Sequence record: NC_007637.1
Strand: one strand, 5' to 3'
From: Escherichia phage K1E
Length of the DNA: 45,251 bases
Below are positions 6,824 through 41,400 of the stretch, piece after piece; the stretch's first letter is position 1, and each line of letters starts with the position of its first letter. Position numbers and translations under genes: made by a program. The notes under the pieces are model-generated. The model worked only from the letters and a program-made list of their open reading frames with translations. It was not told where the DNA came from and did not search any database.

Positions 6824-6846
6824 ATTTACCGGACACTATAGGATAG
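6824..6846 (+). promoter_or_regulatory. SP6-type phage promoter (+1 G at 6841)
   Basis: ATTTACCGGACACTATAGGATAG; the transcript would begin with hairpin ccgtc-gga-gacgg. Confidence 0.75.
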
Positions 6847-7187: not shown

Positions 7188-7406
7188 ATGGCTAAATACA
7201 GAATCAAGACCTGTTTAAATAGTCACGGGCAAGAGTGTTACATAGTGCAACGTAAAGTATTAGGCTTAATATGGGTCACATGTATGATGCCTATTGGATA
7301 TACTGATACAGAGGCTATCTTCTGCACCGAAAGGGATGCAAAGCAGTTTATCTCTAAGCGTAGAAAAGCTGACTCTTATCAACCCAGAACTATTAAGGTG
7401 AACTAA
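7188..7406 (+). CDS. Hypothetical protein (72 aa)
   Basis: Track ORF; its stop overlaps the primase ATG (TAATG). Confidence 0.45.
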   Translation: MAKYRIKTCLNSHGQECYIVQRKVLGLIWVTCMMPIGYTDTEAIFCTERDAKQFISKRRKADSYQPRTIKVN

Positions 7407-9394
7407 TGGCTATTATTAATAACATCCCGTGTCCTGCTTGTCAGAAGAATGGACACGATAAATCCGGCAACCACCTCATGATATTTGATGATGGTGCTGG
7501 CTATTGCAACCGTGGTCACTTCCATGATAATGGCAAGCCCTACTATCACAAGCCAGAGGGTGGCATCGAGATAACCGAATTGCCTATTACTGGCAATATC
7601 AAATATACACCTTCTCAATTCAAAGAGATGGAGAAGGAAGGGAAGATAAGCGACCCTAAGTTGCGCGCCATCGCACTTGGTGGTATGCGTATGAAAGACC
7701 GTTGGGAGGTCATGAATGAGCAAGAAAGGGCAGACCAAGAAGCAGAGTGGAAACTTGATGTTGAATGGTTCCTCACGCTTAAGCGTAAGAACCTTGTGTC
7801 CCGTCACATTCGAGGTGACATCGCAGCAATGTACGATGTGCGCGTTGGACACGATGAAGAGGGAAGAGTCAACCGTCACTATTATCCACGATATGAAAAG
7901 GGTGTGCTTGTTGGAGCAAAATGCCGGACGTTGCCGAAGGATTTTAAGTTCGGACACCTAGGTAAACTCTTTGGTATGCAAGACCTTTTCGGTATGAATA
8001 CTTTGTCTCACGTGTTAGACAAGGGAAGACGAAAGGATTGCTTGCTTATTGTGGGCGGCGAACTGGATGCACTAGCAGCACAGCAAATGCTCCTTGATTC
8101 TGCCAAGGGTACTAAGTGGGAAGGCCAGCCTTACCATGTATGGTCTGCCAATAAAGGTGAGTCTTGCCTTGAAGAGATAGTGCAAAACCGTGAGCACATA
8201 GCCCAATTCAAGAAGATTATATGGGGCTTTGATGGCGACGAGGTGGGGCAGAAGCAGAACCAACAAGCTGCTCGCCTGTTTCCTGGCAAATCCTACATCC
8301 TCGAATATCCCTCTGGTTGCAAAGATGCTAACAAGGCATTGATGGCTGGCAAGGCTAAAGAGTTTGTTGATGCTTGGTTTAATGCCAAGTCATCTGATGA
8401 AGTCTTTGGTAGCCAGATTAAATCTATCGCATCTCAAAGGGATAAGCTCAAGGCTGCACGTCCAGAGCAAGGACTATCATGGCCTTGGCCTAAGCTGAAC
8501 AAGGTAACGCTAGGTATTCGTAAGAACCAGCTTATCATTGTAGGTGCAGGCTCTGGTGTAGGTAAGACTGAGTTCCTTCGTGAAGTAGTTAAGCACCTCA
8601 TTGAAGAACACGGTGAATCTGTAGGCATCATTTCTACAGAAGACCCGATGGTCAAGGTGTCCCGTGCTTTTATCGGCAAGTGGATTGATAAGCGTATTGA
8701 GTTACCGCCAACCAACGACCCGAAAGAAGACGGATACCGTGAGGTGTTCGACTACACCGAGGAAGAAGCTAACGCTGCCATTGATTATGTGGCTGATACA
8801 GGAAAGTTATTTGTGGCTGACCTAGAAGGCGACTATTCTATGGAGAAGGTAGAGCAAACTTGCCTAGAGTTTGAGGCTATGGGCATTTCTAATATCATCA
8901 TTGATAACTTAACGGGGATTAAATTAGATGAGCGTGCTTTTGGTGGGAAGGTTGGTGCACTTGATGAATGCGTCAAACGAATTGGTACTATCAAAGACCG
9001 ACATGCGGTTACGATTTTCCTTGTCTCTCACCTTACACGTCCTCCGGCAAACCGTACCCAACACGAAGAAGGTGGCGAAGTTATCCTTTCTGACTTCCGA
9101 GGCTCAGGCGCTATCGGATTCTGGGCATCTTACGCCTTGGGGATTGAGCGTAATACAAGAGCTGAAACGCTTGACGAAAGGACTACCACGTACATCTCAT
9201 GTGTCAAAGACCGCGACCAAGGTATCTGGACTGGAACCAAGGTCATGCTTAAGGGTGACATTCAAACCGGACGTTTAATGGAACCACAAGCCCGTACTAA
9301 GTCATTTGATACAGGTGAAGCAAGGCAACAAGAAGTGCCGGATTTACCGGACACTATAGAAGAGACAACCTTTGACGATGAACAGGAGTTTTAA
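7406..9394 (+). CDS. DNA primase/helicase (T7 gp4-like, 662 aa)
   Basis: N-terminal Cys4 zinc ribbon (CPACQKNGHD...CNRGH), Walker A GAGSGVGKTEF, acidic C-terminus ...FDDEQEF ending in Phe as in T7 gp4. Confidence 0.9.
   Translation: MAIINNIPCPACQKNGHDKSGNHLMIFDDGAGYCNRGHFHDNGKPYYHKPEGGIEITELPITGNIKYTPSQFKEMEKEGKISDPKLRAIALGGMRMKDRWEVMNEQERADQEAEWKLDVEWFLTLKRKNLVSRHIRGDIAAMYDVRVGHDEEGRVNRHYYPRYEKGVLVGAKCRTLPKDFKFGHLGKLFGMQDLFGMNTLSHVLDKGRRKDCLLIVGGELDALAAQQMLLDSAKGTKWEGQPYHVWSANKGESCLEEIVQNREHIAQFKKIIWGFDGDEVGQKQNQQAARLFPGKSYILEYPSGCKDANKALMAGKAKEFVDAWFNAKSSDEVFGSQIKSIASQRDKLKAARPEQGLSWPWPKLNKVTLGIRKNQLIIVGAGSGVGKTEFLREVVKHLIEEHGESVGIISTEDPMVKVSRAFIGKWIDKRIELPPTNDPKEDGYREVFDYTEEEANAAIDYVADTGKLFVADLEGDYSMEKVEQTCLEFEAMGISNIIIDNLTGIKLDERAFGGKVGALDECVKRIGTIKDRHAVTIFLVSHLTRPPANRTQHEEGGEVILSDFRGSGAIGFWASYALGIERNTRAETLDERTTTYISCVKDRDQGIWTGTKVMLKGDIQTGRLMEPQARTKSFDTGEARQQEVPDLPDTIEETTFDDEQEF
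9342..9364 (+). promoter_or_regulatory. SP6-type phage promoter inside the 3' end of the primase/helicase gene (+1 G at 9359)
   Basis: ATTTACCGGACACTATAGAAGAG; perfect core. Confidence 0.7.
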
Positions 9395-10904: not shown

Positions 10905-11109
10905 AGTCAGTAAGGTTTGCTCTTGCGGTAAAGGTTATCGCAGTCGTATTGATGGTAAGTGTGGGCATTGCAGGTCTAAGAAAGAGGCTGCTTTGTTTGA
11001 TAAGTACCACAATGAATTAGCATATAACTATCCTCATCTAACACCTAATTCTTTATTAGGACTTGGTTATAGGGTTAAATACTTTGGAGCAATCTATGAA
11101 ATCAATTGA
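10891..11109 (+). CDS. Hypothetical Cys-rich (zinc-ribbon-like) protein (72 aa)
   Basis: Track ORF trimmed to ATG 10891 (GAGG 6 nt upstream); CSCGKGYRSRIDGKCGHC. Confidence 0.45.
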   Translation: MKAIKVSKVCSCGKGYRSRIDGKCGHCRSKKEAALFDKYHNELAYNYPHLTPNSLLGLGYRVKYFGAIYEIN

Positions 11110-13642
11110 TTGGAAGAAGGAAGCAGAAGGCCGCATCTTAGTGATGGATTCTGAGGCTAAAGGCCTGCTGGATGCTATCCGATATGGCCACCGCGAAGAT
11201 GTGCACATCATTTGCTGCATGGATTTGCTTACTACAGAGGAGTTCCTCTTCTTTGACCCATACGAGATGCGTGACCCTGAAGCAAGAGAACGCCTAAAAG
11301 AATGGGAAGGCCATCAAGATGGAACATTGGTTGACGGTGTTAACTTCCTTAAACACTGCGAAGCCATCGTCTCACAGAACTTCCTAGGGTACGACGGCCT
11401 TCTATTTGAGAAAGCATTCCCTGATATCTGGAAAGGCTTTAACTATACCGAGAGACGCGGCAAGGGCAGACTCCGCGCTGACCTGTGTCCGGTACGCGTC
11501 ATGGATACGCTGGTCATGAGTCGCCTGTTAAACCCCGATAGACGCCTCCCTCCGCAAGCATACGCCAAAGGCATGGGTAACGTAGCCCCTCACTCAATTG
11601 AGGCGCACGGCATTCGTATAGGCCGTTATAAGCCGGAGAACGAGGATTGGTCTAAACTAACTGACCACATGGTACATCGTGTACGCGAGGACGTGGCGAT
11701 AGGCCGTGACCTATTCCTCTGGCTATTTAACGGAGAATGGACGGAGCACAAACGCCGTGGCGTGAATAAACGCACTGGCCTAGGTATTGAGACAGCCTTC
11801 CACATGGAGTCCATTGTGGCGCTGGAGATGAGCCGTCAGGCCGAGCGTGGATTCCGTCTGGATATAGATAAAGCATTAGCACGATGCGAGGAATTGGACG
11901 CTAAGATTGATGAGACAGTCGCAGCGTTCCGTCCGCACATGCCTATGCGTATCAAGTCTAAACCTTTTAAACCGGAAGAAAAGAATGAAGTATGCCAACG
12001 CGCAAATGAGTATGGAGCTAGCAACAATATACCTACTGTCCTTGACCCCTCTCACTTTCTTCACGCAGAGAGACGAGGAGATCGCAAGACAGTATGGAGT
12101 GTCACTACTAAGTCTGGTGATTGGTCGGCTAGCGTCAAGAAAGACTTTCCTCACCTTAGAGGAAACCGTAATGACACGCCAAGCATCAAGTGGATTGGCG
12201 CTTACTCGCCTGTTACTTTCGAAGAGATTCCCTTGGGTAACAGGGATACAGTTAAGCAAGTGCTCTATGATTATGGATGGAAAGGTGTTGAATTTAACGA
12301 TACCGAGCAAGCGCATCTCGATGAGCATGGCGTATTACCCAAGCCTTGGAGTGGGAAGATAAATGAAAAGTCCCTTACTTTATGGCAAGAGAGAGCCGCA
12401 CGTGAAGGTAAAACAGTCCCTGATTGGTGCTTGGGTATCGCTGCATGGTACATACTCGTATCCCGTCGTGGTCAGATCCTCAACCGTGGTGACGTTGAAG
12501 CCTTCGACCAGAAGGGGGTGTGGCCTTCGCAAGCTGGTATACGAAAGTGTCGCGGCCTTGTACCTGTAGCATTTAACAAGGAGTTAGGAATCAATGCGCA
12601 GCAATACTACGAAAGGTACGGATGCTGGCCTACGTCAGACAAGGATGACGGAGAATGGCGTGTGCCAGCTATTGCTATTAGTATTGGAACTTCTACGTTC
12701 CGTATGCGTCATCGTAACGTGGTTAATATTCCTGCCCGTGGTTTGTATCCTTTACGTGATTTATTCATAGCCGGTAAAGGTAAGCTAATCCTTGGTTGTG
12801 ATGGTGCTGGTCTTGAACTACGTGTACTGTCTCACTTCATGAATGACCCTGAATATCAAGATATTGTACTGCATGGTGACATTCACACCCATAATCAAAT
12901 GAAGGCTGGTCTTCCTAAGCGTGACATGGCGAAGACATTTATATATGCCTTCCTATATGGGTCTGGTATAGCTAACCTTGCAGCAGTATGTGGTGTTACT
13001 GAGGAAGAAATGGAGGAAGTTGTGGCAAGATTTGAGGTTGAACTACCATCTCTTGCACGTCTTCGTGAGAATGTTATCGCACAAGGTAACAAGTTTGGCT
13101 ACCTACAAGCACCTGATGGTCATTGGGGTCGCATCCGTATGTCTGGTGGTGAACTTAAAGAGCACACTATGCTTAACGTACTACTCCAGATGACTGGTTC
13201 TCTGTGTATGAAATACGCATTGGTCAGAGCGTTTGCAGTGATGCGCAAGGAAGGTGTGGCCTTAGATAGCATGGGAAACCCTTGCGGTATAGCTAACGTG
13301 CACGATGAAATCCAGATGGAAGTCCCTGAAGATGAGGTCTTGTATCTCAACTACGACTTGCCTTTCACCTTAGAAGGGTTCGAAACAGAGAAGGCTGCTG
13401 TGAAAGCAGTGTTCGATGCAGAGGAGAAACGTGTTCATGTGGATTCTGAAGGACGTATGTGGTCTGCTGCAAATCTCGTTAGCGTTGATGCTGATGCTGG
13501 TGTACTTCATTGCCAGCGTCGCTATCACCGTGCAGGGCATATCATTGCCGACGCAATGACTTGGGCGGGTCAGTATCTGAAGATGCGTTGTCCGATGGCA
13601 GGTGAGTATAAGATTGGTGCAAGTTGGAAGGAAACACACTGA
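11096..13642 (+). CDS. DNA polymerase, family A (848 aa)
   Basis: Track ORF trimmed to ATG 11096 (GGAG upstream). Exonuclease motif VMDSEAKG, motif A CDGAGLELRVL, motif B RDMAKTFIYAFLYG, motif C VHDEIQ. Confidence 0.9.
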   Translation: MKSIDWKKEAEGRILVMDSEAKGLLDAIRYGHREDVHIICCMDLLTTEEFLFFDPYEMRDPEARERLKEWEGHQDGTLVDGVNFLKHCEAIVSQNFLGYDGLLFEKAFPDIWKGFNYTERRGKGRLRADLCPVRVMDTLVMSRLLNPDRRLPPQAYAKGMGNVAPHSIEAHGIRIGRYKPENEDWSKLTDHMVHRVREDVAIGRDLFLWLFNGEWTEHKRRGVNKRTGLGIETAFHMESIVALEMSRQAERGFRLDIDKALARCEELDAKIDETVAAFRPHMPMRIKSKPFKPEEKNEVCQRANEYGASNNIPTVLDPSHFLHAERRGDRKTVWSVTTKSGDWSASVKKDFPHLRGNRNDTPSIKWIGAYSPVTFEEIPLGNRDTVKQVLYDYGWKGVEFNDTEQAHLDEHGVLPKPWSGKINEKSLTLWQERAAREGKTVPDWCLGIAAWYILVSRRGQILNRGDVEAFDQKGVWPSQAGIRKCRGLVPVAFNKELGINAQQYYERYGCWPTSDKDDGEWRVPAIAISIGTSTFRMRHRNVVNIPARGLYPLRDLFIAGKGKLILGCDGAGLELRVLSHFMNDPEYQDIVLHGDIHTHNQMKAGLPKRDMAKTFIYAFLYGSGIANLAAVCGVTEEEMEEVVARFEVELPSLARLRENVIAQGNKFGYLQAPDGHWGRIRMSGGELKEHTMLNVLLQMTGSLCMKYALVRAFAVMRKEGVALDSMGNPCGIANVHDEIQMEVPEDEVLYLNYDLPFTLEGFETEKAAVKAVFDAEEKRVHVDSEGRMWSAANLVSVDADAGVLHCQRRYHRAGHIIADAMTWAGQYLKMRCPMAGEYKIGASWKETH

Positions 13643-13758
13643 TGGACAGGTTTGATATTGTTTGCCTATTCTCCACCTTCTTTCTTATATTCCTTATGCT
13701 TGCTTGCTATGGAAGTATGCGATTAGATATACCTGATGAAGAGGAGGGTTACGATTGA
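13642..13758 (+). CDS. Hypothetical small hydrophobic protein (38 aa)
   Basis: ATG overlaps the polymerase stop (TGATG); found by manual translation. Confidence 0.3.
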   Translation: MDRFDIVCLFSTFFLIFLMLACYGSMRLDIPDEEEGYD

Positions 13759-13856
13759 TGCAGGCATCTTTTATTATTCTTGGAGTCATATTATTTATGG
13801 TAGTATTCTGGGCTTTCTCTGGCATTGACCCAGATTGTGATGGTAACTACGACTGA
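13758..13856 (+). CDS. Hypothetical small hydrophobic protein (32 aa)
   Basis: ATG overlaps the upstream stop (TGATG); GAGGAGG upstream; found by manual translation. Confidence 0.3.
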   Translation: MQASFIILGVILFMVVFWAFSGIDPDCDGNYD

Positions 13857-13866
13857 GTTATACTCA

Positions 13867-13891
13867 AGGTCACTTACGAGTGGCCTTTATG
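13867..13891 (+). terminator. Candidate hairpin terminator
   Basis: aggtcact-tacg-agtggcct (8-bp stem with one G-U pair) followed by tttatgaataa. Confidence 0.3.
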
Positions 13892-13924
13892 AATAACTTA
13901 TTCCTACTTATTTTGTCTAACATG

Positions 13925-13947
13925 ATTTACTGGACACTATAGAAGGA
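13925..13947 (+). promoter_or_regulatory. SP6-type phage promoter (+1 G at 13942)
   Basis: ATTTACTGGACACTATAGAAGGA; followed by an AT-rich leader with CTAGGT repeats. Confidence 0.8.
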
Positions 13948-14011: not shown

Positions 14012-14389
14012 ATGTCTATGGTAACTACTCTGGTATTCGTGGCTCAATACTTTCGTGGTCTTGCTAATAAGTTCAAGTCCAAGGCTATCAAAGCTATTGA
14101 GGCTCGCATCGAAGCAGTACAGGCAGAGCAAGTTAAAGTTGAAGAACATCGTAGTTCTCAAATGATTGACTGTCATAACCGCTACTATGCATCTCGTGAT
14201 GAACTAAATGCACGTCAAGTCAAAGAGGTAGAAGATATGCTGGCACGTCACCAGCAAGAGCGTGACAGCCTGAAAGCTGAATTTGAAGAGAACAAGGCAT
14301 CAATTGCTCTTGTAAATCAAGCTGCATCTGACAGCCTGAAGAAAGAGATTGTTATGCTGGAAATAGAACTGGACAACTTGACTAAATAA
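14012..14389 (+). CDS. Hypothetical protein, probable coiled coil (125 aa)
   Basis: ATG with TAGGAGA upstream; heptad-like charged sequence. Confidence 0.55.
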   Translation: MSMVTTLVFVAQYFRGLANKFKSKAIKAIEARIEAVQAEQVKVEEHRSSQMIDCHNRYYASRDELNARQVKEVEDMLARHQQERDSLKAEFEENKASIALVNQAASDSLKKEIVMLEIELDNLTK

Positions 14390-14864: not shown

Positions 14865-15671
14865 ATGGCACGTGGTGATTTCGATTTTGGTGCTTCCGTA
14901 TCTAAAGCTGAAGGTAAAGTCTTTAAGAATCCAGAAGTAGGTGATCATGAAGCAGTAATCTCTGGCATCATTCATGTTGGTTCCTTCCAAGACATCTTTA
15001 AGAAAGGTAATACCACTGAAGTTAAGAAGCCAGCAAACTTTGTTCTGGTTAAGATTGTCCTGATGGGTGACGATGACAAGAACGAAGATGGTTCTCGCAT
15101 GGAACAATGGATGGCTGTGCCTCTGAAGTCTGGTGATAAGGCAACACTGACTAAGTTCCTGAATGCAGTTGACCCTAAAGAGTTGCTGGGTGGCTTCGAT
15201 GATTTTATCGGTGAATGTCTGACTGCAACTATGGTTGGCTCTGGCGACAAGAATGATGATGGTACTTTCAAGTATGTTAACTGGAAAGGCTTTGGCGGTA
15301 TGCCTGATAAGTTGAAGAAGCTTGTACTGGCTCAGGTAGAAGAGGAAGGTCTGTCTATGACAGGTCATATCACCTTCGACAAGCTGACCAAAGAAATCAT
15401 TGATGACATCCCAGCTAACTTGGTACGTCAATACTTCCTGAACGAGACACCTCGTGGTAAGAACCTGTCTGTTGCTGGCTCTCACGTAGAAGCTATTATC
15501 AAAGCTGCTCGTGAAGAAGACCCTGAATGGAAGAAGGCTAAGAAGAAAGACGAGGAAGATGCTACCCCAGCTAATCGTAAATCTCTGGATACTGGTGAGT
15601 CTGTTCCGCAGGAAGTACCTGAAGCAGAAGATACGCCTGCACCGGAGATGGATGAGGACGCGGAATATTAA
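14865..15671 (+). CDS. Hypothetical replication-associated protein with acidic C-terminal tail (268 aa); candidate ssDNA-binding protein
   Basis: AGGAGA RBS; C-terminus ...PEMDEDAEY (acidic, aromatic last residue) resembles the DNA-polymerase-binding tails of T7 gp2.5 and gp4. N-terminal DFDFGASVS motif is shared with the exonuclease. Confidence 0.4.
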   Translation: MARGDFDFGASVSKAEGKVFKNPEVGDHEAVISGIIHVGSFQDIFKKGNTTEVKKPANFVLVKIVLMGDDDKNEDGSRMEQWMAVPLKSGDKATLTKFLNAVDPKELLGGFDDFIGECLTATMVGSGDKNDDGTFKYVNWKGFGGMPDKLKKLVLAQVEEEGLSMTGHITFDKLTKEIIDDIPANLVRQYFLNETPRGKNLSVAGSHVEAIIKAAREEDPEWKKAKKKDEEDATPANRKSLDTGESVPQEVPEAEDTPAPEMDEDAEY

Positions 15672-16004: not shown

Positions 16005-16376
16005 ATGTTCAAGATTGAAACTATCGTAAACCGTGTTGTTAAAGGTGCTGCTCTGGTATCCGTTGAGTCTTTCATTATCGTCGATGAAGCTGATCAACTG
16101 GTAGCTGGTACTAAGGCTTACGATACCCGTGAAGAAGCTCAGGCTAAGATTGACAGCATGGGTAACTTCGCTGCTGGTCTGGAGTTTGCTCGTGCTTGCT
16201 TCCCTGAGCAGGCTGACAAAGCCCAGATCGGTAAGGCTAACATCGTAGCTGAATATCTGGATTGGATTGCTGCTGGTAAACCAGTGAAAGAAGTTAAAGC
16301 TGCTGAAGAAGCTGAAGCTCCGGCAGTAGAAGTGTCTGCACCGGAAGCTCCGGTTAGCGAAGAGGAAGAGTTTTGA
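16005..16376 (+). CDS. Abundant small protein with acidic C-terminal tail ending in Phe (123 aa); candidate ssDNA-binding or polymerase accessory protein
   Basis: Strong RBS AAAGGAGA; codon usage typical of a highly expressed gene; C-terminus ...APVSEEEEF. Confidence 0.4.
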   Translation: MFKIETIVNRVVKGAALVSVESFIIVDEADQLVAGTKAYDTREEAQAKIDSMGNFAAGLEFARACFPEQADKAQIGKANIVAEYLDWIAAGKPVKEVKAAEEAEAPAVEVSAPEAPVSEEEEF

Positions 16377-36912: not shown

Positions 36913-37107
36913 ATGATTAACTCCGAACTGGTAGATAGTGGTGTGAAGCTTGCGCCACCTGCATTAGTCTCAGGTGGGTACTTCCTCGGTATCAGTTGGG
37001 ATAATTGGGTGTTAATAGCAACATTCATTTATACCGTGTTGCAAATTGGAGACTGGTTTTATACCAAGATTAAACTATGGAGGAAGAACCGTGAGCGTCC
37101 ACAATAA
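36913..37107 (+). CDS. Holin (T7 gp17.5-like, 64 aa)
   Basis: AAGGAGG RBS; single transmembrane segment NWVLIATFIYTVLQIGDWFYTKIKLWRK parallels T7 gp17.5 as I remember it. Confidence 0.65.
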   Translation: MINSELVDSGVKLAPPALVSGGYFLGISWDNWVLIATFIYTVLQIGDWFYTKIKLWRKNRERPQ

Positions 37108-41250: not shown

Positions 41251-41400
41251 ATGAAAAAGCTGTTTAAGTCTAAGAAAGTGGTAGGTGCACTGGTTGCACT
41301 AGTGATTGCTCTTGTTTCTGTAGGTCTTGGCGTAGACCTAGGTGAAGGTGCGGAAGGTTCCGTCACTGACGTGGTATGCCAAGTAATCACCTGTGAATAA
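41251..41400 (+). CDS. Hypothetical small membrane protein (49 aa); lysis-cassette component
   Basis: ATG 41251 with GGGAG upstream; basic N-terminus followed by a hydrophobic segment; found by manual translation. Confidence 0.35.
   Translation: MKKLFKSKKVVGALVALVIALVSVGLGVDLGEGAEGSVTDVVCQVITCE

Follow-up and report, generated by a model that had tools for sequence, protein, structure and literature searches.

The locus behind the DNA polymerase gene of Escherichia phage K1E raises a simple question: are the two very short open reading frames (ORFs) found there genes, and what might peptides of 38 and 32 residues do for the phage? These ORFs, here called ORF-A and ORF-B, lie in sequence record NC_007637.1, a stretch of 45,251 nucleotides (nt) that was analysed whole and is referred to below as the window. 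A sequence-only reading had described them as translationally coupled, hydrophobic and possibly small regulators or host-membrane effectors. Our comparisons indicate that both are real and dispensable genes maintained by purifying selection, and their products are predicted to be single-helix inner-membrane peptides.

Position of ORF-A and ORF-B

The polymerase gene and the two short ORFs lie end to end:

11063-13642, plus strand: DNA polymerase gene (K1-5 gene 13), an ORF of 859 codons, so annotated in K1-5, fTuEco01 and LL11.
13642-13758, plus strand: ORF-A (K1-5 gene 13.5; phrog_15860), 38 residues, one predicted transmembrane (TM) helix, acidic tail IPDEEEGYD.
13758-13856, plus strand: ORF-B (K1-5 gene 14, SP6 gp15; phrog_4539), 32 residues, one predicted TM helix, tail DPDCDGNYD.

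The polymerase stop codon, TGA at 13640-13642, shares one nucleotide with the start of ORF-A, whose ATG at 13642 has the context cacTGATGgac and whose own TGA occupies 13756-13758; the product is MDRFDIVCLFSTFFLIFLMLACYGSMRLDIPDEEEGYD (38 residues). ORF-B begins in the same manner at 13758, in the context gatTGATGcag, and ends with TGA at 13854-13856, giving MQASFIILGVILFMVVFWAFSGIDPDCDGNYD (32 residues). The TGATG overlaps with the preceding stops and the lengths of 38 and 32 codons, as first read from the sequence, are borne out by both the sequence and the ORF list.

One-nucleotide stop/start overlaps are also present at accepted gene pairs elsewhere in the window (7406, 23505 and 29620), a point in favour of the pair. 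A T[AG]ATG context surrounds 19% of all ATGs of the window, so that the overlap by itself is weak evidence. TM-grade hydrophobicity is found in 7 of the 70 small plus-strand ATG-ORFs, four of the seven lying in wrong frames within genes. Hydrophobicity and overlap alone are thus weak evidence for genes, and it is conservation that lifts the pair above chance. A -1 frameshift fusing the polymerase to ORF-A was considered and rejected: the ORF-A frame is open from 13612, yet no X_XXY_YYZ slippery site occurs in 13612-13642. A minus-strand ORF at 13694-13825 was disregarded, all ten phage promoters and all genes being on the plus strand.

Coding status and purifying selection

Conservation in related phages, the check named beforehand for this pair, was found together with in-frame constraint. 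A tblastn search of 50,697 phage records gave full-length matches to ORF-A in 66 records and to ORF-B in 67, with the length kept exactly. The ratio of non-synonymous to synonymous change (pN/pS) was calculated from 18 unique ORF-A and 13 unique ORF-B nucleotide sequences, with the last 120 polymerase codons from the same genomes as control. In frame, pN/pS is 0.21 for ORF-A (bootstrap 0.11-0.39) and 0.24 for ORF-B (bootstrap 0.11-0.44), and 0/2000 bootstraps reach 1. The shifted frames give 0.72-1.23, compared with 0.23 for the polymerase codons.

The lowest ratios are seen in the tails, being 0.11 for residues 27-38 of ORF-A and 0.02 for residues 24-32 of ORF-B. Because synonymous divergence (pS) there is normal (0.32-0.40), the tails appear to be kept as protein and not as an RNA or terminator signal. 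Phages that carry ORF-A without ORF-B point the same way for the first tail: they retain DEEEGYD despite synonymous changes that weaken the Shine-Dalgarno (SD) site of the missing ORF-B, now unneeded, which argues that the ORF-A tail is selected as protein. Invariant positions comprise L9, L15, L18, M19, A21-S25 and D32-D38 in ORF-A, and include V15, V16, W18, F20-G22, D24-D26 and D28-D32 in ORF-B; in both peptides they gather in the C-terminal half of the helix and in the tail. An RNA element in place of a protein was rejected, since no Rfam family matches the region and the pattern of synonymous and non-synonymous change favours protein. We conclude from these substitution patterns that ORF-A and ORF-B are genuine coding genes under purifying selection, as tight as that on the adjoining polymerase codons.

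Identity and earlier annotation

In DNA sequence the region shares 99.8% identity with Escherichia phage fTuEco01 and 98.4% with K1-5 (genus Vectrevirus, SP6 group). The products of ORF-A and ORF-B are identical to K1-5 gp13.5 (AAR90054) and gp14 (AAR90055) respectively, and ORF-B is 87.5% identical to SP6 gp15 (NP_853575); SP6 has the second ORF only, which there overlaps the polymerase stop directly. Both ORFs are entered as 'hypothetical proteins' in the fTuEco01 record, and in that of LL11 they are given ribosome-binding sites and the label 'TMD N in C out'. The genome paper of UAB_Phi78 gives its copy as 'Unknown', similar to SP6 Gp15 (PMC4837284). Of the PHROG families, phrog_15860 matches ORF-A with E = 2.8e-30 over residues 1-38 of 38 and phrog_4539 matches ORF-B with E = 3.7e-17 over residues 1-28, both being labelled as of unknown function.

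The gene slot of K1-5 13.5/14 and SP6 15 lies directly after the polymerase gene, with a start that overlaps the stop, and upstream of the terminator. The K1E pair occupies this slot and shows no difference from K1-5 gp13.5 and gp14 or SP6 gp15, these being the same genes in the same post-polymerase position with the same stop/start overlap. The implication of the sequence-only reading that the ORFs had been overlooked does not hold, since entries exist in K1-5, fTuEco01, LL11, SP6 and PHROG, beginning with the K1-5 and SP6 genome papers (13.5/14 and gp15). ORF-A and ORF-B are already catalogued hypothetical genes of a narrow phage clade, and no new kind of element.

Distribution and modular presence

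Relatives were gathered as 76 IMG/VR loci by anchoring on the C-terminus of the polymerase. Close relatives fall into four exact architectures, in which the polymerase stop and the terminator motif are 0 nt apart with neither ORF, 98 nt with ORF-B only (as in SP6), 116 nt with ORF-A only (as in CrRp3 and Raoultella P3a) and 214 nt with both. Broken copies are also seen: Mt1B1_P10 has a stop codon within the frame, ULINTec6 and L006 have frameshifts, and P0009 is a fusion of 61 residues; in NTNC80A an HNH homing endonuclease separates the polymerase gene from ORF-A. The four exact architectures and the broken copies suggest that ORF-A and ORF-B are accessory modules, gained or lost independently of each other. 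As judged from these genomes, both genes are dispensable, relatives lacking either or both.

The post-polymerase slot is also an insertion hot spot in this clade, receiving an HNH homing endonuclease, an 87-residue ORF located past the terminator, or ORFs of 153-194 residues that are unrelated (L084 86-514, which is NTNC80A; L092 657-917; L090 657-917; L085 676-936; L012/L013 2786-3370; L018 3057-3590; L019 2819-3352; L016 2755-3225; L025 2731-3192).

Wider searches indicate that the two families occur only in Vectrevirus and Zindervirus. A profile search with ORF-B against 1.84 billion representatives returned one cluster and one 29-residue relative (P0003) that keeps WAFTGIDPNNDGNYD. Copies in other genomic contexts were sought with a degenerate DNA pattern, which found the same slot only: nine IMG/VR viral and three metagenome contigs, all with the order polymerase, (A), B, terminator. 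A host or plasmid origin was set aside because searches of 5,426 E. coli genomes and of 72,556 plasmids gave no match, and no anti-phage defence or NCBI-named family was found at E ≤ 1 in PADLOC or NCBIfam.

Three apparent relationships were examined and rejected. Paralogy of ORF-A and ORF-B finds no support in hhalign, which aligns the last eight residues only (PDxxxxYD), with a probability of 1.3% and E = 0.041. Two NhaA Na+/H+ antiporters of about 450 residues (P0031 and P0032) share the 90% cluster of ORF-A, yet BLASTP gives no alignment at E ≤ 100, so that this co-membership is best regarded as a clustering artefact of the protein collection. P0002, a repeat protein of 1638 residues ('SGIAPDWEGE') in which Pfam finds no domain, matched the motif of the ORF-B tail by chance.

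Short hydrophobic ORFs are found near the polymerase gene in more distant phages as well. In relatives with about 56% polymerase identity and a 249-residue ORF downstream, the polymerase gene is directly followed by another, unrelated pair of very short hydrophobic ORFs, of 30 and 32 residues (L039 2727-2921; L041-L043; L052 3003-3197; L054 2729-2923). The second ORF of this group has an in-frame pN/pS of 1.15, calculated from very few changes, and three loci have a frameshift in the first; a coding status of this pair is not supported. Nor is a general rule that a tiny TM ORF follows the polymerase gene, since this pair shows no in-frame constraint. Erwinia phage Era103 (L031 3359-3457) has a 32-residue hydrophobic ORF about 640 nt past the polymerase stop, the end of which, ...GIEPSYD, recalls the tails in ...NYD and ...GYD. 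No PHROG family matches this ORF, and homology is not established.

Translation signals and transcription unit

Signals for translation and transcription flank the two ORFs as follows:

13626-13632, plus strand: SD-like GGAAGGA for ORF-A, inside the last polymerase codons (W-K-E).
13741-13748, plus strand: GAGGAGGG, the strong SD site of ORF-B, which falls within the codons for EEEG in ORF-A.
13851-13903, plus strand: terminator-like stem-loop with a core hairpin at 13866-13887, AAGGUCACU-UACG-AGUGGCCUU, followed by UAUG.
13925-13945, plus strand: SP6-type phage promoter ATTTACTGGACACTATAGAAG, a perfect match, which opens the next transcription unit (gene 15).

The SD site of ORF-A forms an anti-SD duplex of -5.7 kcal/mol at a spacing of 8-9 nt and is kept in all relatives; in the phages with ORF-B only, it reads GGAAGGAG (-8.8 kcal/mol). 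The SD site of ORF-B, at -12.5 kcal/mol and about 10 nt ahead of its ATG, is in the top 1% of the window background. The stem-loop has a minimum free energy of -18.6 kcal/mol (z = -4.5), with 0/200 shuffles folding as well, and the motif GTTATAyTCAAGG stands directly 3' of the last cistron in all four architectures. Matches to ATTTACTGGACACTATAGAAG with up to three mismatches number 10 in the window, all on the plus strand, against 0.01 expected by chance, and the nearest one upstream of 13925 is at 9342. Since the hairpin and then the promoter at 13925 follow the pair, and the previous promoter is that at 9342, ORF-A and ORF-B are placed as the last cistrons of the polymerase transcription unit.

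On this arrangement the middle (DNA-metabolism) unit would begin at the 9342 promoter, close with the hairpin (about 13866-13887) and have ORF-A and ORF-B as its last genes. Each ORF would be translated by re-initiation at the one-nucleotide overlap, aided by its own SD site, and because of this the output of both peptides would be tied to translation of the DNA polymerase.

Predicted architecture and topology

Each peptide contains a 21-residue uncharged span with a mean Kyte-Doolittle hydropathy of 2.0-2.5. AlphaFold2 models made from the family alignments have a single helix, residues 3-28 in ORF-A and 2-21 in ORF-B, followed by a non-helical tail with a predicted local distance difference test (pLDDT) score of about 60; hydropathy and modelling thus agree with the single-helix membrane peptides proposed at the outset, one predicted hydrophobic helix in each. 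The acidic tails, of 10-12 residues, are flexible.

In all variants the C flank of the helix is more negative than the N flank, by a charge difference of -5 to -7, and the orientation most likely to follow from this difference, for both peptides, is N-in/C-out, which would place the acidic tail at the periplasmic face. The independent call of the LL11 annotators, 'TMD N in C out', agrees with the predicted orientation. The main positive charge of ORF-A, R/K3, is N-terminal and kept in all but one variant, and R27 is replaced by Q in several variants; ORF-B has no Lys and no Arg.

The tail of ORF-B fits the pattern D-x-[DNS]-x-[DNS]-G: 12 variants all have DPD(C/Y)DG, and the 29-residue relative P0003 has DPNNDG, differing from DxDxDG in a permitted way (D to N at position 3). 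The ORF-A tail (DIPDEEEG) does not fit. The complete 12-residue loop of an EF-hand-like site, with Glu/Asp at position 12, is not present in ORF-B, which ends at loop position 9 in a tail of low pLDDT, and no Pfam or PDB match to an EF-hand-like Ca-binding domain was obtained for ORF-B even at E ≤ 1-10.

Possible function and alternatives

The explanation that we favour, and to which we give about even weight, is that ORF-A and ORF-B are real, dispensable small genes for inner-membrane peptides that act at the periplasmic face, a role in exclusion or at the envelope being the leading guess. Each product would be a bitopic inner-membrane peptide, with about 21 residues in its helix and a further 10-12 in a flexible, strongly acidic tail, that binds a membrane-embedded or periplasm-facing partner and alters its activity, as other bacterial and phage small membrane proteins do. 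Action through a partner is suggested by where constraint is strongest, namely in the tail and in the C-terminal half of the helix, which would lie in the outer leaflet. The role itself can be proposed only tentatively, and may be the exclusion of superinfecting phage or a conditioning of the host envelope during replication. Such a role fits best because the peptides would be produced alongside the replication proteins, well ahead of the late lysis genes, and are dispensable in the laboratory.

Phage inner-membrane superinfection-exclusion proteins, such as T4 Imm and HK97 gp15, are small and membrane-anchored, appear before lysis and can be dispensed with in the laboratory. The K1E peptides resemble them in small size, predicted membrane anchoring, dispensability and pre-lysis timing, but have no homology to them and are much smaller. 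A second likeness is to the small inner-membrane regulators of bacteria, among them MgrB and AcrZ, single-TM proteins of up to 50 residues that are presumed to bind a larger membrane protein (PMC7267776; 10.1101/438515). Size, the single TM helix and a short extramembrane tail are shared, and the resemblance is one of kind only: there is no sequence similarity, and ORF-A and ORF-B are phage-encoded and lack basic residues beside the helix.

Several points weigh against this explanation. The literature searched gave no ribosome profiling, mass spectrometry, expression or functional data, and no direct evidence of translation or membrane location was found. The topology is derived wholly from charge rules, and the positive-inside rule is uninformative for ORF-B because that peptide has no Lys or Arg. 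The exclusion or envelope role was picked on the grounds of timing, of dispensability and of where the constrained residues lie, and has no direct support. Searches of Pfam, NCBIfam, PADLOC and the PDB were all empty, giving no homologue with a known function. Loss and pseudogenisation are frequent, so that any benefit of the genes would be conditional.

It is also conceivable, although we think it unlikely, that ORF-A and/or ORF-B encode holin-, antiholin- or toxin-like peptides that tune lysis time or collapse the membrane potential, the latter serving host shut-off or blocking the entry of competing DNA that depends on the proton motive force. Their gross build is that of the 49-residue phrog_4712 'holin' ORF of the same genome (41251-41400), with one TM helix and then an acidic C-terminal tail, and small single-TM depolarisers are known, DinQ being an example (PMC3567139). 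The phrog_4712 protein, however, has a basic N-terminus (MKKLFKSKK) and is encoded in the late region, whereas ORF-A and ORF-B lack the basic cytoplasmic domain typical of holins and match no holin PHROG and no Pfam family, their sole PHROG matches being the two families of unknown function. Nor do they lie with the late lysis genes; they belong to the polymerase operon, and the lysis genes of SP6-like phages are in the late region (PMC4640515). Two holin-type genes, at 36913-37107 (phrog_920) and 41251-41400, are already present.

The position of the pair recalls a different possibility, which we consider improbable: that the peptides are tail-anchored in the opposite, N-out/C-in orientation, their acidic, Tyr-containing C-terminal tails facing the cytoplasm, where they would mimic replisome tails, dock on the polymerase encoded upstream and tether or regulate the replisome at the membrane. 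Both genes always come directly behind the polymerase gene, to which their translation is coupled, and replication proteins of the window end in acidic residues followed by an aromatic (...DDEQEF, ...MDEDAEY and ...SEEEEF). In T7, acidic tails bind a basic patch at the front of the polymerase, the terminal Phe being essential (PMC12339929, its refs 41-42), and those of T7 gp2.5 and gp4, which dock on T7 DNA polymerase, share with ORF-A and ORF-B a short, disordered, strongly acidic C-terminus, a conserved aromatic and a gene next to that for the polymerase. The absence of a basic residue from ORF-B, which leaves nothing to fix its topology, could also accommodate this orientation. The aromatic of the K1E tails is penultimate, however: they end Tyr-Asp (...GYD and ...NYD), with no terminal aromatic of the T7 type, and are attached to a TM helix and predicted to be periplasmic. 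With a charge difference of -5 to -7, all variants are predicted to be C-out. Vertical inheritance within a narrow clade may be enough to explain the constant position, and the genes are dispensable, many relatives with the same polymerase lacking them.

A broader idea, which we regard as a long shot, is that the peptides serve not as generic membrane effectors but as adaptors that present their tails. These might be cytoplasmic and dock the co-translated polymerase at the inner membrane, giving a membrane-tethered replication factory in a phage of the T7 supergroup; alternatively, the invariant DPDxDGNYD of ORF-B might form a minimal membrane-anchored DxDxDG site for divalent cations at the periplasmic face.

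That the peptides have no function, as chance or relic frames or as frames in which only the act of translation matters, for example in carrying ribosomes to the terminator, is very improbable: chance often produces short hydrophobic ORFs and T[AG]ATG contexts in this genome, and the cassette is often absent or broken, but the in-frame pN/pS values of 0.21 and 0.24 (0/2000 bootstraps at 1, shifted frames near-neutral), a constraint equal to that on the polymerase codons, tails near-invariant despite synonymous divergence, exact length in 66-67 records and the lack of an Rfam family all stand against it.

Other features of the window

The 49-residue ORF at 41251-41400 (plus strand), MKKLFKSKKVVGALVALVIALVSVGLGVDLGEGAEGSVTDVVCQVITCE, lies in an otherwise non-coding gap and matches phrog_4712 'holin' with E = 1.4e-26. 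It falls, like ORF-A and ORF-B, below a 60-residue ORF cut-off and is a second holin-type gene besides that at 36913-37107 (phrog_920).

The ten SP6-type promoter matches, all on the plus strand and found by pattern match, start at 6824, 9342, 13925, 14694, 15932, 19097, 24431, 37182, 40033 and 41717, and provide a ready transcription map of the window.

Gene 15 (14012-14389, plus strand), the first gene after the promoter at 13925, is widely labelled 'polysaccharide chain length determinant protein' (phrog_7450 and many GenBank records). It has no Pfam match above the cut-offs, the best having E = 0.0037 and 17.8 bits against a 33.5-bit cut-off, and its N-terminus has only a short hydrophobic stretch, seemingly too short to span the membrane. 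The label looks unreliable.

Three other products of the window carry an acidic tail with a terminal aromatic residue, a feature that in T7 marks partners of the DNA polymerase:

7406-9394, plus strand: primase/helicase (...DDEQEF).
14865-15671, plus strand: 268-residue phrog_862 protein (...MDEDAEY).
16005-16376, plus strand: 123-residue phrog_4429 protein (...SEEEEF).

Significance

Phages of the K1-5, K1E and SP6 type serve as therapeutic and engineering chassis. To the existing annotation of this gene slot the present analysis adds that ORF-A and ORF-B are constrained as tightly as the neighbouring polymerase codons, chiefly in the acidic tail and the outer half of the helix. It further indicates that the two genes are independent plug-in modules with exact junctions, in families confined to Vectrevirus and Zindervirus. 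Being dispensable and yet selected, they make cheap targets for deletion or for tests of function, and the docking of a membrane peptide on the polymerase, or the binding of a cation by its tail, would be of wider interest if either proved true.

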